Source: a phage. Taken from it: a stretch of 64,000 nucleotides of DNA. The notes beneath the pieces were generated by a model that saw only the letters and a program-made list of their open reading frames with translations, had not been told where the DNA came from and searched no databases. Made by a program: the position numbers and the translations under genes. Of this stretch, positions 52,373 through 61,266 are shown piece by piece (position 1 is the stretch's first letter; each line of letters begins with the position of its first letter). Location: the sequence record PZ543597.1; one strand, written 5' to 3'.

Positions 52373-52385
52373 TTTCACAAAGTTG

Positions 52386-52414
52386 TTTACATAGGGTTTT
52401 AGTTGTGATACTAT
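52386..52414 (+). promoter_or_regulatory. early-type promoter (TTTACA-N17-TACTAT) embedded in an inverted repeat
   Basis: -35 52386-52391, -10 52409-52414; ATAGGGT/ACCCTAT arms at 52391-52397 and 52416-52422. Confidence 0.6.
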
Positions 52415-52448
52415 TACCCTATCAAAACAAAACCAAATGGAAATCAAA

Positions 52449-52682
52449 ATGAAAACTTACCAAGAATTTATTGCTGAAACTGCTGATGTAAAAGTTGAGT
52501 TTATTTACACTGGCAAGAAAGATAAAATGGGTGAAATGCCTCATGGAGTTCTTCGTGATGCATTAGATAATTTCGGTCAACTCGCCGCAGAAGATTACGG
52601 TGATAAAATTGTTGTTACTGGTCCTGCTGCAGTTATTGAAAAATGGGCAGCAGAAAATAAATCAATTTTTCGTAAAAAATAA
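52449..52682 (+). CDS. internal-protein-like head protein with capsid-targeting leader (MKTYQEFIAE)
   Basis: 77 aa from the internal ATG; N-terminal MKTYQEFIAE is the T4 IP capsid-targeting/gp21-cleavage motif (L/I-x-E). Confidence 0.75.
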   Translation: MKTYQEFIAETADVKVEFIYTGKKDKMGEMPHGVLRDALDNFGQLAAEDYGDKIVVTGPAAVIEKWAAENKSIFRKK

Positions 52683-52683
52683 G

Positions 52684-52712
52684 TTTACTTTTAGATAGGG
52701 TAGTGATACTAT
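52684..52712 (+). promoter_or_regulatory. early-type promoter (TTTACT-N17-TACTAT) embedded in an inverted repeat
   Basis: -35 52684-52689, -10 52707-52712; GATAGGGTA/TACCCTATC arms at 52694-52702 and 52713-52721. Confidence 0.6.
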
Positions 52713-52740
52713 TACCCTATCTACTACTGAGGAGAATAAA

Positions 52741-52926: not shown

Positions 52927-53324
52927 TGAACGTTGAATATTATGTATATGCGGATTACGAAAATAATCCGTCTAAAGATGAAGATAATCGTTTAGGTGTA
53001 GATGCTTTCGATTCCCCTGCGGCGGCATGGCAATGGGTTGAAAGAACCGATATTCCTTACCGTTATATTGAAGTGGTTGACCACGCAGGAAACAAGTATC
53101 CTAAGGAAGCATATGTTGCTTCCGGGAAGGTAAATTTCCTTTTGTTTGCAGGTGATAATTATTATCCCCGTGGTGGGTATACCGATTTAATTGCTAAAGC
53201 ATTCTCTGAAGATGAACTCCGTGACATTATCAAAGAAAATGAAAACAAACCGATGGATTCTAATCGCTTTGATTGGTGGCAAATCGTAAATGCTAATACT
53301 CACACTATTGTTGATGAAGGCTGA
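52926..53324 (+). CDS. hypothetical protein
   Basis: 132-aa ORF, start overlaps the previous stop. Confidence 0.55.
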   Translation: MNVEYYVYADYENNPSKDEDNRLGVDAFDSPAAAWQWVERTDIPYRYIEVVDHAGNKYPKEAYVASGKVNFLLFAGDNYYPRGGYTDLIAKAFSEDELRDIIKENENKPMDSNRFDWWQIVNANTHTIVDEG

Positions 53325-53326
53325 TA

Positions 53327-53614
53327 ATGATTCTTTATGCGAAAGTATCATCCATTGAAAATGGATATAAATATGATCAAGACGCGGCTAAAGCTTTGAT
53401 TGATGATTATGGCATTTTAACATGTTTTGAAGTTGAAAAGGTTTACATTGACCGTTCATCTTCTCAAGTTAAATTAGTGAAGGAAGAACGTAAATTTAAT
53501 ACAGTAAATTTTGATTTCTTTATTGAAACAGAAAAAGGTCCTCTTGAATATGATATTTTCAAGAATCCTTTGGGTCTTGAATGCATCGTAAATATGTATT
53601 ATTATAAATGGTAA
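53327..53614 (+). CDS. hypothetical protein
   Basis: 95-aa ORF. Confidence 0.5.
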   Translation: MILYAKVSSIENGYKYDQDAAKALIDDYGILTCFEVEKVYIDRSSSQVKLVKEERKFNTVNFDFFIETEKGPLEYDIFKNPLGLECIVNMYYYKW

Positions 53615-53711
53615 ATATGCTTTAAGAATTATTTGTTATTATTAACTCATATCGCACTGATTAATACCCTCTATCATCAAGGGTTCTTGCTTAAGAGCCT
53701 TTGTTAATAAT

Positions 53712-53784
53712 TGGGAATTAGCCAAGTTGGTAAGGCACTGGATTTTGATTCCAGGATGCAAAGGTTCGAGTCCTTTATTCCCAG
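53712..53784 (+). tRNA. tRNA-Gln (anticodon UUG)
   Basis: acceptor TGGGAAT/ATTCCCA, anticodon loop tTTTGAt, T-loop GGTTCGAGTCC. Confidence 0.85.
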
Positions 53785-53785
53785 C

Positions 53786-53872
53786 GCGAGAATGGCCAAA
53801 TTGGTAAAGGCACAGCACTTAAAATGCTGCGGAATGATTTCCTTGTGGGTTCGAGTCCCACTTCTCGCACCA
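53786..53872 (+). tRNA. tRNA-Leu (anticodon UAA), type II, CCA encoded
   Basis: acceptor GCGAGAA/TTCTCGC, anticodon loop CTTAAAA, long variable arm, 3' ACCA. Confidence 0.85.
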
Positions 53873-53877
53873 AATTT

Positions 53878-53951
<74 letters not shown>

Positions 53952-53961
53952 ATTTAATTTA

Positions 53962-54035
53962 CTCCGTGTAGCTCAGTTTGGTAGAGCGTCTGCTTTGGGA
54001 GCAGAATGTCGTAGGTTCAAATCCTGCCACGGAGA
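53962..54035 (+). tRNA. tRNA-Pro (anticodon UGG)
   Basis: acceptor CTCCGTG/CACGGAG, anticodon loop TTTGGGA, T-loop GGTTCAAATCC. Confidence 0.85.
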
Positions 54036-54037
54036 CT

Positions 54038-54127
54038 GGAGGCGTGGCAGAGTGGTTTAATGCACCGGTCTTGAAAATCGGCAGTCGCTCCGGCGACTCA
54101 TAGGTTCAAATCCTATCGCCTCCGCCA
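54038..54127 (+). tRNA. tRNA-Ser (anticodon UGA), type II, CCA encoded
   Basis: acceptor GGAGGCG/CGCCTCC, anticodon loop CTTGAAA, long variable arm. Confidence 0.85.
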
Positions 54128-54132
54128 GTTTT

Positions 54133-54208
54133 GCTGATTTAGCTCAGTAGGTAGAGCAACTCACTTGTAATGAGAAGGTCGGCGGTTCGATTCCGTCAAT
54201 CAGCACCA
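54133..54208 (+). tRNA. tRNA-Thr (anticodon UGU), CCA encoded
   Basis: acceptor GCTGATT/AATCAGC, anticodon loop CTTGTAA. Confidence 0.85.
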
Positions 54209-54209
54209 A

Positions 54210-54284
54210 GGCCCTGTAGCTGGAAGGTTCAAGCAAGCGACTCATAATCGCCAGATGGTGGTTCAATTCCACCCAGGGCCACCA
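54210..54284 (+). tRNA. tRNA with CAU anticodon (Ile via lysidine, or Met), CCA encoded
   Basis: acceptor GGCCCTG/CAGGGCC, anticodon loop CTCATAA. Confidence 0.8.
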
Positions 54285-54293
54285 AATTAATTT

Positions 54294-54380
54294 GGGGAGT
54301 TATCCCGTAGAGGTAGCGGTGTGGACTGTAAATCCATTGTCATTGCGACTCGGGTGGTTCGACTCCACCACTCCCCACCA
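54294..54380 (+). tRNA. tRNA-Tyr (anticodon GUA), type II, CCA encoded
   Basis: acceptor GGGGAGT/ACTCCCC, anticodon loop CTGTAAA, long variable arm. Confidence 0.8.
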
Positions 54381-54384
54381 ATTT

Positions 54385-54459
54385 GGATGTGTAGCTCAAT
54401 GGCAGAGCGATCGCCTGTTAAGCGATTGGTTATAGGTTCGAATCCTATCACGTCCGCCA
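54385..54459 (+). tRNA. tRNA-Asn (anticodon GUU), CCA encoded
   Basis: acceptor GGATGTG/CACGTCC, anticodon loop CTGTTAA, T-loop GGTTCGAATCC. Confidence 0.8.
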
Positions 54460-54573
54460 AATTTGTGACAACTGTCACATTAATATCTACTTGACGCGAT
54501 TATAGGGGTTGAACTGATCACTCTTCTCTTAATTTCGTGTGAAGACATCTTGATTGTTGGAGTAGGTATTAAT

Positions 54574-54649
54574 GTGGCCGTAGTTCAGTTGGTAGAACTC
54601 GAGATTGTGATTCTCGTAGTCATGGGTTCGACTCCCATCGGTCACCCCA
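54574..54649 (+). tRNA. tRNA-His (anticodon GUG), CCA encoded
   Basis: acceptor GTGGCCG/CGGTCAC, anticodon stem CGAGA/TCTCG with loop TTGTGAT, discriminator C. Confidence 0.75.
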
Positions 54650-54653
54650 ATTA

Positions 54654-54729
54654 CGGGGCATAGCTCAGAAGGAAGAGCAAGGACCTTCTAAGTCCTAGGT
54701 CGTAGGTTCGATCCCTACTGCCTCGACCA
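54654..54729 (+). tRNA. tRNA-Arg (anticodon UCU), CCA encoded
   Basis: acceptor CGGGGCA/TGCCTCG, anticodon loop CTTCTAA, T-loop GGTTCGATCC. Confidence 0.85.
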
Positions 54730-54747
54730 ATTATAAGTGAGGAAAAT

Positions 54748-55098
54748 ATGAAAGGTAATGTTTATTTAGTAGTTCATGATTTAACATTCTATTTTAATCA
54801 TAATGATACTGTTATTTCTGAACGTGTAATTAATTTGCTTTATCAGCATGCAGATTATGTTTATGTCGAAAACGAATATGGTCATTGGCAATTTCTCAAA
54901 AATCGTTCATTTGGTTTAGATGGTTACGAATATTTTGATCGTAAAGACCTTTTAGATACAATTCCGTTATCTACACAATATCAAAATCATAAGTCTTTAC
55001 ATAAATGCCGGCTAATTCGAAATGCTGAATCCGCGTATGAAGCAATTGATTTGTGGCGTAAACGCCGTGAATATATTGATTCTTTAAAAGAATATTAA
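54748..55098 (+). CDS. hypothetical protein
   Basis: 116-aa ORF with SD (gaggaaa) directly after tRNA-Arg. Confidence 0.6.
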   Translation: MKGNVYLVVHDLTFYFNHNDTVISERVINLLYQHADYVYVENEYGHWQFLKNRSFGLDGYEYFDRKDLLDTIPLSTQYQNHKSLHKCRLIRNAESAYEAIDLWRKRREYIDSLKEY

Positions 55099-55405
55099 GA
55101 AACCGGGTCGCTACCGGTAAGTCGTCGGACTGATGTTCCCTGGAGTATAGTTTCCTCCCACAGTTTTACTGTGTTCTGGCTCTTTACTATCACAGCAGAA
55201 ACGGCGCACCGAATTATCGATTCGAGGAAATATCTTTGCCGTAAGCCGAGTAGCGTTTTTGACGGAACGTTCGGATATGGTCGAGATATGGCCTTTTAAA
55301 AATATTGAGTAGCGTCAACTACTTAATAACCGGGTTCGAATCCCGGCGTTTCGTACAAACACTTGCCTTAGCAGGTGGAACCCCGACAAGGTTGCCGCAA
55401 GGCTT

Positions 55406-55434
55406 AGCCCCGACCGAAAGGTTGGGGCTTTTTG
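55406..55434 (+). terminator. rho-independent terminator (copy 1 of a repeated 31-bp terminator)
   Basis: agccccgacc-gaaa-ggttggggct + ttttt. Confidence 0.7.
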
Positions 55435-55435
55435 G

Positions 55436-55443
55436 TATAAATA
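55436..55443 (+). promoter_or_regulatory. late promoter TATAAATA upstream of the internal-protein gene
   Basis: exact TATAAATA 36 nt upstream of the ATG at 55479. Confidence 0.65.
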
Positions 55444-55478
55444 TTAGTATATTAAATCTACAAATTAAAACAGGAAAT

Positions 55479-55955
55479 AAGATGAAATCATATACTCAAT
55501 TTTTAAATGAAGCGGTGTTAAATGAAGCATCTAGCACCGAAATTCAAGCTGTTGCAAAAGCTGCCATTGCCGCGGGTAAATATTCCTATAAAGATGCTTC
55601 TGATGAATCGCGATTCCAGTTTGCACGCGACATGAAAGCGGAAGGATTTACGGGAAATGCAGTTAGTATGGCCTGGAAAAGTTTAGTTGCTACTGGCGCT
55701 GCTTTTGCAAAGGCTTCGGGTAAACCTGCTCCTAAAGCAGATCCTAAAGCGGCACAAGAAAAAAATATCGTTAAAGGAATTATCGCTAAATATGAAGCTA
55801 TCCTTAAAGAGCTTTTAGTAATCAAAACCGAAGGCCAAAAGTTAGCCCGTGCTTATAGTTTCAAAGATAATCCACATGTTCACTCTCTTGAGTATGTTGA
55901 AGACATCCAAAAAATTATTAAAGACCGCATTTGGTCTGCTAAACAAATCAAATGA
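55479..55955 (+). CDS. internal-protein-like head protein with capsid-targeting leader (MKSYTQFLNEA)
   Basis: 158 aa; start at internal ATG with SD aggaaa; leader fits the IP capsid-targeting motif; Ala/Lys-rich body. Confidence 0.75.
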   Translation, partial: KMKSYTQFLNEAVLNEASSTEIQAVAKAAIAAGKYSYKDASDESRFQFARDMKAEGFTGNAVSMAWKSLVATGAAFAKASGKPAPKADPKAAQEKNIVKGIIAKYEAILKELLVIKTEGQKLARAYSFKDNPHVHSLEYVEDIQKIIKDRIWSAKQIK

Positions 55956-55962
55956 CATTCTT

Positions 55963-55990
55963 AGCCCCGACCGAAAGGTTGGGGCTTTTT
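55963..55990 (+). terminator. rho-independent terminator (copy 2 of the repeated 31-bp terminator)
   Basis: same 31-bp hairpin sequence as at 55403-55433. Confidence 0.7.
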
Positions 55991-56080
55991 AGTTTGAATC
56001 ACTCGGATAACGCTGTTACGGATAGTAACAAAGTAATAAATAATTAATAACCAACCGATAAATTATTTCAAGGATTTTAA

Positions 56081-56644
56081 ATGAAAACCTATGCCGAATT
56101 TTTAACCGAAGCAGCAAAATTACCATCTGAAGCAGATCTTACTAAAGTATTCTTCCAATTGGACCCAAAAGACCGCGGCGATTTTCTTAAGTGGAAAGCT
56201 AAAGCTATTGAAATGTACAACATCGATAATAGTTCTTTTACAATGAGTCAAGAAAATAAATTCAATAAAGCATTTTTCAAAATTTCTAAGAAATTGGCAT
56301 CTGGCGCTCAGGTTCCTAAATCTGTGTTAGCTACTCCTGAACGCGCACCTGTTAAAATTTCTAAGAATATGTTCGACACTAAAAAATACGTTAATGCTTT
56401 GAATAAAGCTCTTGATGCATTGGATGATGCAAAGAAGGCAGCCCGCGATCTTCAAGACGTGTACACCGATTTTGACCGCAAAACTAAAGGTTCTATTTCA
56501 AATAGCGAACGCAATAGTGTAAGTGTTTATTCTGATAGCCTTGATGTTCTTGGCGATGCGTATACTGAAATTAAAAATCGTATTAACACTGCATCTAAGC
56601 TAAAAGCTGCTGCAGAAGCTATAATAAGTAAACTAGGTAAATAA
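56081..56644 (+). CDS. internal-protein-like head protein with capsid-targeting leader (MKTYAEFLTEA), IPIII-sized
   Basis: 187-aa ORF; leader MKTYAEFLTEA; SD aaggat. Confidence 0.75.
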   Translation: MKTYAEFLTEAAKLPSEADLTKVFFQLDPKDRGDFLKWKAKAIEMYNIDNSSFTMSQENKFNKAFFKISKKLASGAQVPKSVLATPERAPVKISKNMFDTKKYVNALNKALDALDDAKKAARDLQDVYTDFDRKTKGSISNSERNSVSVYSDSLDVLGDAYTEIKNRINTASKLKAAAEAIISKLGK

Positions 56645-56652
56645 TTTTAAAT

Positions 56653-56677
56653 CCCTATCTAAATGATAGGGCTTTTT
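56653..56677 (+). terminator. rho-independent terminator
   Basis: CCCTATC-taaat-GATAGGG hairpin + cTTTTT. Confidence 0.65.
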
Positions 56678-56810
56678 GGTATCTAGGCCTTTCTGGACCT
56701 CTCTAGGCATCATTTAGTTTCTACCCTTTATAATATATTATCCTATCCTTTAACTGCCCCTTCCCTCCCTAGAATTCCCTAAAACTTTTTAAAATTTTTT
56801 CACAAAACTG

Positions 56811-56839
56811 TTTACATCCCCGTTCTTCCATGGTACTAT
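56811..56839 (+). promoter_or_regulatory. early-type promoter (TTTACA-N17-TACTAT)
   Basis: -35 56811-56816, -10 56834-56839. Confidence 0.65.
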
Positions 56840-56883
56840 ACAACTATCAACTACTGATACAGAAAAACAACTTGGAGAATGAA

Positions 56884-57147
56884 ATGGATAATTACGGCGA
56901 ACTGTTCAACTTCTTTATGAAATGCGTTTCAGAAGATTTCGGTCGTACAGTGAATGATATTAAAGTTATCGGTCCTGATCATCCGATGTTTGAAACTTAC
57001 GCAGTAATGGGTAATGAAGACGGTCAGTGGTATACTGTAAAAGTTGTGATTAACATGTTCACAGCAGAAGGTTATGTTAAACTGTCTTCTAAAGTTTATC
57101 ATGACAACGACGAAATCGCAGAAGAATATTTCAATAATATGAAATAA
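56884..57147 (+). CDS. hypothetical early protein
   Basis: start at internal ATG (MDNYGELFNFF...) with SD ggaga, downstream of the predicted promoter; ORF track begins at 56830. Confidence 0.55.
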   Translation: MDNYGELFNFFMKCVSEDFGRTVNDIKVIGPDHPMFETYAVMGNEDGQWYTVKVVINMFTAEGYVKLSSKVYHDNDEIAEEYFNNMK

Positions 57148-57148
57148 G

Positions 57149-57177
57149 TTTACACAGGCTCATGATTGAGATATTAT
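57149..57177 (+). promoter_or_regulatory. early-type promoter (TTTACA-N17-TATTAT) overlapping a 28-bp palindrome
   Basis: -35 57149-57154, -10 57172-57177; aggctcat...atgagcct inverted repeat 57156-57183. Confidence 0.6.
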
Positions 57178-57202
57178 GAGCCTATAATTTGAGGAAAATA
57201 TT

Positions 57203-60463: not shown

Positions 60464-61266
<803 letters not shown>

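Follow-up and report, generated by a model that had tools for sequence, protein, structure and literature searches.

The DNA analyzed here is a stretch of 64,000 nucleotides of phage origin (sequence record PZ543597.1), referred to below as the window. Judged from its sequence it is from a Tequatrovirus, i.e. a T4-like phage: positions 54700-56750 are 100% identical to Tequatrovirus D5505, YUEEL01 and Yersinia phage ZN18, among others. A total of 763 phage records match part of this region, and 128 cover at least 80% of it, spanning the two genes dealt with below. On the T4 map the + strand of the window is the minus strand; read along this + strand, the gene order is 57B, the ipI locus, trna.4-trna.2, 11 tRNA genes, a 116-aa open reading frame (ORF), rnaD, rnaC, a variable locus, e.8, e.7 and e.6. 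The variable locus has the layout rnaC - T copy 1 - TATAAATA - gene 1 - T copy 2 - AATAAATA - gene 2 - T3 - ~200 nt - e.8, where T denotes predicted terminators, and the coordinates of its features are collected in Table 1. The right-hand flanking gene, e.8, is annotated in T4, RB32, T2 and RB14. An Rfam scan of 53000-57000 returned tRNAs only, with no family for rnaC, rnaD or the terminator hairpin.

Upstream of the variable locus, the 116-aa ORF (54748-55098) occupies the space from tRNA-Arg to rnaD, with a stop codon overlapping the rnaD start. This ORF is variably present in relatives: T4, RB32, RB14 and PST are without it, and in T4, RB32 and PST the homing endonuclease gene segB is found upstream of tRNA-Arg, in its place.

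Table 1. Features of the variable locus between rnaC and e.8 and of its flanks (positions in the window).
Feature	Position	Strand	Basis or remark
rnaD-like small RNA (T4 species 2 RNA homologue)	~55095..55211	+	pairwise alignment to RB68 GenBank annotation
rnaC-like small RNA (T4 species 1 RNA homologue)	~55217..55355	+	mapped from RB68 and T4 annotations
Terminator repeat copy 1 (predicted), hairpin 55406-55429 and T5	55403..55433	+	exact repeat, terminator scan, fold -21.6 kcal/mol
GGGCTTTTTGGTAT, first copy of 14-nt repeat	55425..55438	+	bounds 1244-nt segment absent from T4 and BP32
Late promoter motif TATAAATA of gene 1	55436..55443	+	motif search; 3 nt after copy 1
Gene 1, 157-aa protein, phrog_2280 (unknown function)	55482..55955	+	ORF, N-terminal motif, PHROG match E 2e-60
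Terminator repeat copy 2 (predicted), hairpin 55963-55986 and T5, at the end of gene 1	55960..55990	+	exact repeat, terminator scan, fold -20.5 kcal/mol
Putative late promoter variant AATAAATA of gene 2	56035..56042	+	read from sequence
Gene 2, 187-aa protein	56081..56644	+	ORF; N-terminus MKTYAEFLTE/A; phrog_2280
Third terminator T3 (predicted), hairpin 56653-56671 and T run	56653..56677	+	terminator scan, fold, repeat search
GGGCTTTTTGGTAT, second copy (3' half of T3 and GGTAT)	56669..56682	+	bounds same 1244-nt segment
e.8 homologue, conserved right-hand flank of variable locus	56884..57147	+	T4 e.8 start, 2 mismatches in 30 nt

The first-pass annotation of this DNA had proposed that identical 31-bp repeats at 55403-55433 and 55960-55990 bracket a gene at 55479-55955 together with its late promoter. 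The two repeats are exact and both are on the + strand, and the bracketing and the promoter motif between the copies could be confirmed, but the start of the gene had to be moved: its ATG is at 55482, and 55479 is one in-frame codon upstream. The 31-mer, CTTAGCCCCGACCGAAAGGTTGGGGCTTTTT, has exactly two copies in the window, where no further match was found at up to 3 mismatches, and none of 100 dinucleotide shuffles contained a match to it. In each copy a stem of 10 bp, 7 of them GC pairs, is closed by a GAAA loop and followed by T5; the RNA folds at -20.5 to -21.6 kcal/mol (z-scores -3.7 and -4.5), and none of 200 shuffles was as stable. Both copies are thus textbook predicted intrinsic (Rho-independent) terminators, a GC-rich hairpin followed by a U run, which would end transcripts at these sites. 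Copy 1 closes the tRNA-rnaD-rnaC block, and this hairpin with its T run recurs in T4 and T2 at the equivalent site downstream of rnaC, the T4 31-mer differing in its first base from copy 1 of the window. In GenBank records, including those of D5505 and fPS-65, the hairpins are annotated only as predicted terminators. A repeat search identified a third member of the family at 56647-56686, 68% similar, which is the terminator of the next gene, so that the start-to-start spacings of the three members are 557 and 687 nt. The inner stem of this third member, T3, differs, and its 3' half, GGGCTTTTT, is common to T3 and the 31-bp repeat. Just upstream of copy 1, at 55381-55394, the sequence CCCCGACAAGGTTG echoes the terminator stem CCCCGACC-GAAA-GGTTG, and the same is observed in T4; it may be a degenerate extra terminator copy or part of a structure in the 3' trailer of rnaC.

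A ubiquitous terminator with no association to cassette boundaries would have refuted the cassette proposal of the first-pass annotation. The exact 31-mer is not ubiquitous: it was found at 516 places in 420 phage records, once or twice per genome, and in this locus only wherever inspected. Assuming that no record has three copies, these figures imply that about 96 records carry it twice. Within Tequatrovirus, hairpin variants (GA to AG, C to T, and G to A in the loop) keep the full 10-bp stem, with energies of -18 to -21 kcal/mol, and the versions in Mosigvirus and Dhakavirus retain the hairpin with an internal loop. Compensatory changes in the Mosigvirus hairpins were considered and rejected, as folding gives an internal 2x2 loop, and no covariation is claimed.

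The promoter motif of gene 1, TATAAATA, matches the T4 late promoter consensus (described in PMC2988020) and is kept in all the gene-1-bearing Tequatrovirus loci inspected. Upstream of gene 2 the motif is present as a variant with A in place of T at the first position, the change seen most often in the 50 listed T4 late promoter sites (9 of 50; PMC2988020). Both sites are predicted to fire late. Gene 1 was found by tblastn in 512 records and gene 2 in 165 phage records, in one place each. The two proteins match the same PHROG, phrog_2280, and pairwise similarity between them is confined to the N-terminus. Searches against Pfam gave no significant match for either protein. An AlphaFold2 model of the gene 1 product, built on a 9-sequence alignment, is all-helical (pLDDT 73, pTM 0.44), and a Foldseek search of this model against PDB and BFVD returned its own orthologue only, with no informative fold match. 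The ipIV of Yersinia phage PST, of the same length (157 aa) and located in the ipII/ipIII locus, was considered as a relocated gene 1 and discarded, the two being unrelated (BLASTP E 3.6).

Comparison of the locus across related phages, as had been suggested in the first-pass annotation, was done with 25 loci from GenBank phages and IMG/VR, 23 of them from Tequatrovirus; an exact-pattern scan of IMG/VR gave 5 loci, too few for a census. The outcome favoured the cassette proposal. All four possible states occur among the 23 Tequatrovirus loci: both genes in 5 (the window, D5505, CrRp10 and two IMG/VR contigs), gene 1 only in 9 (RB68, RB32, NBEco003, UFV06, UPWr_E4, slur02, CM8 and two IMG/VR contigs), gene 2 only in 4 (RB14, G3F7, Killian and CT01), and neither gene in 5 (T4, T2, BP32, PST and RB9). 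Rough proportions in Tequatrovirus, derived from 60 records taken at even steps down the match ranking and from tblastn counts, are 25% with both genes, 50% with gene 1 only, 10% with gene 2 only and 15% empty. In the tabulated Tequatrovirus loci gene 1 always lies between two terminators of the family, and a single terminator is found wherever gene 1 is absent. Divergent alleles of gene 1 (70-80% identity) sit between the same flanking repeats. The Mosigvirus phages JK36 and ChristianSchoenbein, whose gene 1 alleles have about 70% identity, likewise carry a related hairpin on each side of the gene. Dhakavirus IME08 has the upstream hairpin and the late promoter, but its downstream terminator is unrelated. 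The locus of ChristianSchoenbein is a mosaic (1214-2364 of that locus), with gene 1 being 71% and gene 2 96.8% identical to those of the window, and the hairpin that separates the genes marks the shift in similarity.

The breakpoints of these states could be placed on the window sequence. The gene-2-only phages RB14, G3F7 and Killian are without exactly 55403-55959, 557 nt that make up one repeat copy and the spacer, and have a single terminator left; gene-2-only phages read rnaC-T-AGTTTGAATCAC..., continuing as the window does after copy 2. In T4 and BP32 the missing segment is 55439-56682 (1244 nt), bounded by the 14-nt repeat GGGCTTTTTGGTAT; in T4 the hairpin and T run after rnaC are followed directly by GGTATCTAAGCC... 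and e.8, with no intervening gene. In the gene-1-only phages copy 2 runs straight into GGTATCTAGGCC..., which in the window is found after T3, and about 687 nt bounded by GGGCTTTTT are missing. This last junction was read directly from the sequences, since a global mafft alignment misplaced the gap for RB68 and RB32.

Variants of the repeat also point to exchange between its copies. The stem variants CCCCGACC and CCCCAGCC both pair fully, and each is seen at either copy depending on the phage: RB32 combines GA at the first copy with AG at the second, and in one IMG/VR contig the two are the other way round. Among the empty sites, BP32 carries AG, the copy-2 variant of RB32, and T4, T2, PST and RB9 carry GA. 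Such swapping would fit crossover or conversion within the repeat and the formation of empty sites more than once, although with few loci this is suggestive only. Identical 31-mers are present on both sides of gene 1 in 5 of 5 both-gene loci and in 2 of 9 gene-1-only loci; in the remaining 7 of these 9 the copies differ by 1-3 nt, and homogenisation is therefore not constant.

An exact 14-nt direct repeat of another sequence, AAAATTTCTAAGAA, occurs within gene 2 at 56279-56292 and 56354-56367, and in Shigella phage CT01 gene 2 (1801-2289 of its locus) has lost 75 nt in frame, equivalent to 56279-56353 of the window, so that its protein has 162 aa vs 187 aa. The missing segment falls exactly between the two copies of AAAATTTCTAAGAA, and this is a second, independent repeat-bounded deletion in the same locus.

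These data suggest the following model. The variable locus would be a string of self-contained units, each made of a late promoter (or a variant of it), a gene and a terminator. Recombination between terminator copies would remove a whole unit and leave one working terminator, the terminator sequence shared by the ends of all units making the removal clean. Possible routes are unequal crossing-over, strand annealing and slippage in the course of T4 recombination-dependent replication, and such loss of a unit, or its opposite involving two genomes, would yield the four natural states. In a phage with both genes, the deletion junction would read rnaC-T-AGTTTGAATC. It is known that T4 deletes and amplifies segments between homologies of 6-10 bp in the laboratory (PMC9391042), and since such lengths suffice in T4, an exact 31-bp repeat with copies 557 bp apart should by inference be a good substrate. 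Cassette recombination is supported by comparative evidence, namely the breakpoints of natural variants. We infer from them that recombination at the repeats, and not elsewhere, made the indels; the direction assigned to each event is likewise a reading of the sequences. The first-pass annotation had described the bracketed unit as a cassette that could be exchanged, duplicated or deleted. Deletion and exchange agree with the indel breakpoints at the repeats, the consistent bracketing and the divergent alleles found in the same frame of repeats; duplication is unsupported, as none of the 512 records with gene 1 has two copies of it.

Several known systems resemble this arrangement. The elements named PeSLs (promoter-early stem-loop) by Krisch and colleagues combine a stem-loop with an early promoter and lie on either side of variable ORFs in T4-type phages (PMC2839356, PMC4122927); they recombine to delete or insert the flanked ORFs, with mini-circles detected by inverse PCR (Arbiol et al., 2010, PMC2839356; Comeau et al., 2014, PMC4122927). 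As in PeSLs, a stem-loop or terminator is found here directly upstream of a promoter, a Shine-Dalgarno sequence and an ATG; small accessory genes of hyperplastic regions have copies on both sides, close relatives gain or lose the flanked gene cleanly while one element stays, and the mechanism proposed is recombination between the flanking elements. Unlike in PeSLs, the promoter is the late one TATAAATA, vs early sigma-70-like or middle promoters in PeSLs, and no sigma-70-like site was found next to either terminator copy. In our case only the 31-bp terminator is repeated, each copy being followed by a different promoter, and the family has 2-3 members at one locus vs dozens dispersed over the genome. 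The case would thus work as PeSLs do but lacks two of their defining features, the early promoter and the dispersed multi-copy family.

According to the same two reports (PMC2839356, PMC4122927), PeSL-like sequences were described by Repoila et al. (1994) at two variable internal-protein (Ip) loci of T-even phages. What is given there of that work resembles our locus in that variable genes for injected head proteins, whose targeting N-terminus is conserved, are shuffled among T-even phages in association with repeated promoter/stem-loop elements. The elements in question were reported to be built on T4 early promoters, with weak stem-loops rich in AT, at the loci ipI and ipII/ipIII, vs a strong GC-rich terminator and a late promoter at a different locus, from rnaC to e.8, in the present case. 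The window also contains a 39-nt element, GTTTACATAGGGTTTTAGTTGTGATACTATTACCCTATC, in three copies 72-77% alike (52385-52423, 52683-52721 and 57148-57186), which resembles a T4-type early promoter (GTTTAC ... TACTAT) with the inverted repeat TAGGGT/ACCCTA. Copies 1 and 2 of this element bracket the ipI-locus gene at 52449-52682 and match the PeSL-like elements of T-even Ip loci.

The locus can also be compared with the short-repeat deletions of T4 (Srikant et al., 2022, PMC9391042), in which a segment between direct repeats is lost, one repeat is retained and the same recombination machinery is involved. Those are laboratory events at chance homologies of 6-10 bp, vs a 31-bp functional element and events deduced from natural variants here. 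The repeat itself had been noticed before, as the GenBank record of RB32 annotates its gene 1 homologue as 'flanked by 34 bp imperfect direct repeat', and the principle of cassettes bounded by regulatory elements was already known for T4-type phages and for their internal-protein loci; our literature search found no paper analysing the terminator repeat at rnaC-e.8.

We regard the loss and gain of units by recombination at the terminator copies as the likely explanation of these patterns. The main competitor is a passive role of the terminators, whose copies would be relics of one old insertion or tandem duplication, the pattern having spread solely by recombination in the flanks (rnaC and e.8). 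Flank recombination is compatible with the data: whether the upstream ORF 54748-55098 is present does not depend on which of genes 1 and 2 a tabulated locus carries, each of the four states being found with it and without it, so that crossing-over in the flanks between co-infecting phages also spreads states, and frequently. The non-identical copies in most gene-1-only phages would agree with passive terminators too, and the match of both genes to the same PHROG is compatible with an old tandem duplication of a gene plus its terminator. What this explanation does not account for is that three different indels (557, ~687 and 1244 nt) all end inside repeats of the terminator family, or that the same hairpin variant can occupy either copy position, one empty site having the copy-2 variant; moreover, the length of the exact repeat far exceeds the homologies that suffice for deletion in T4 (PMC9391042). 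Passive copies on their own seem to us unlikely. Even so, few founding events at the terminators are strictly required as a minimum, and selection could also favour indels that end in terminators, as only those keep the expression signals intact.

Mobility of the PeSL type, with excision of the cassette as a mini-circle, re-insertion at element copies elsewhere and movement of the gene between loci, would have precedent in the mini-circles of RB49 and phi1 shown by inverse PCR (PMC2839356), in the PeSL-like layout of a stem-loop immediately upstream of the promoter, and in the PeSL-like elements reported at T-even internal-protein loci, one pair of which flanks the ipI-locus gene of the window. 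Against this, both genes have one place per genome in every record that carries them, and this was always between rnaC and e.8, and never at another locus, in the loci inspected; the terminator is present at most twice per genome, which leaves no other landing sites, and the promoter is late and not early sigma-70-like. We consider such mobility very improbable here. Chance similarity or an assembly artefact has nothing in its favour and is rejected, given the shuffling results, the independent genome records with the 31-mer twice and the 128 records spanning both genes; the presence of the exact 31-mer in 420 phage records argues by itself that the repeat was not created by assembly.

Four genes of the window start with a motif resembling a capsid-targeting sequence, MKxYxxF[LI]xE (52449-52682, 55482-55955, 56081-56644 and 60985-61266). 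Two of them are in the classical Ip loci and belong to phrog_8111, 'internal virion protein', and phrog_3499, 'internal head protein', the latter located between the lysozyme gene e and the next gene; the other two are genes 1 and 2, whose rnaC-e.8 interval is distinct from both Ip loci named in the literature consulted. The ipI-locus gene of the window has the N-terminus MKTYQEFIAE/T, and those of genes 1 and 2 are similar (the slash marks a prohead-protease-type site, L/I-x-E before a small residue, by motif match only). That of gene 1, MKSYTQFLNE/AVLNE/A, looks like a capsid-targeting sequence with a second LNE/A site, again by motif match only. T4 IPI, IPII and IPIII have in common with genes 1 and 2 the motif MKxYxxF(L/I)xE followed by Ala, and all of them are small, non-essential and variably present, with late promoter motifs; past the N-terminus there is no similarity in sequence or fold. 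Homology of gene 1 to a named Ip family was not detected, its matches being phrog_2280, of unknown function, with no Pfam and no fold match. Gp140 of Yersinia phage fD1, which is 98% identical to the gene 1 product, was listed as particle-associated by LC-MS/MS, in a data set of low specificity where 113-137 of 277 proteins were flagged. The label of 'internal protein' for gene 1 is thus based on the N-terminal motif, the late promoter motif and that one virion proteome. Taken together, the products of genes 1 and 2 are probably packaged in the head and injected with the DNA.

T4 IPI, IPII and IPIII are injected inhibitors of GmrSD-type restriction (PMC12373910, PMC3012670). A broader proposal would be that rnaC-e.8 is a third, unnamed injected-protein locus of T-even phages, that its junctions of terminator and late promoter are the late-gene counterpart of PeSLs, acting as preferred crossovers to swap anti-defence proteins unit by unit, and that genes 1 and 2 encode new inhibitors of host defence, e.g. 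of the GmrSD type. As a whole we hold this proposal to be speculative and doubtful.

The variation described here is an ordinary case of gain and loss of accessory genes, and leaves the current understanding of phage genome plasticity unchanged. It does provide a natural example, at base-pair resolution, of how T4-like phages add or drop single accessory genes with the neighbouring expression signals undamaged, the junction between units being always the same terminator. For isolates used in phage therapy, stocks may be heterogeneous at this locus through the 557-bp deletion between the exact 31-bp repeats. Finally, the locus brings to attention two uncharacterised, variably present and probably injected proteins that are candidates for a role in anti-defence, as T4 Ip1-3 turned out to have.
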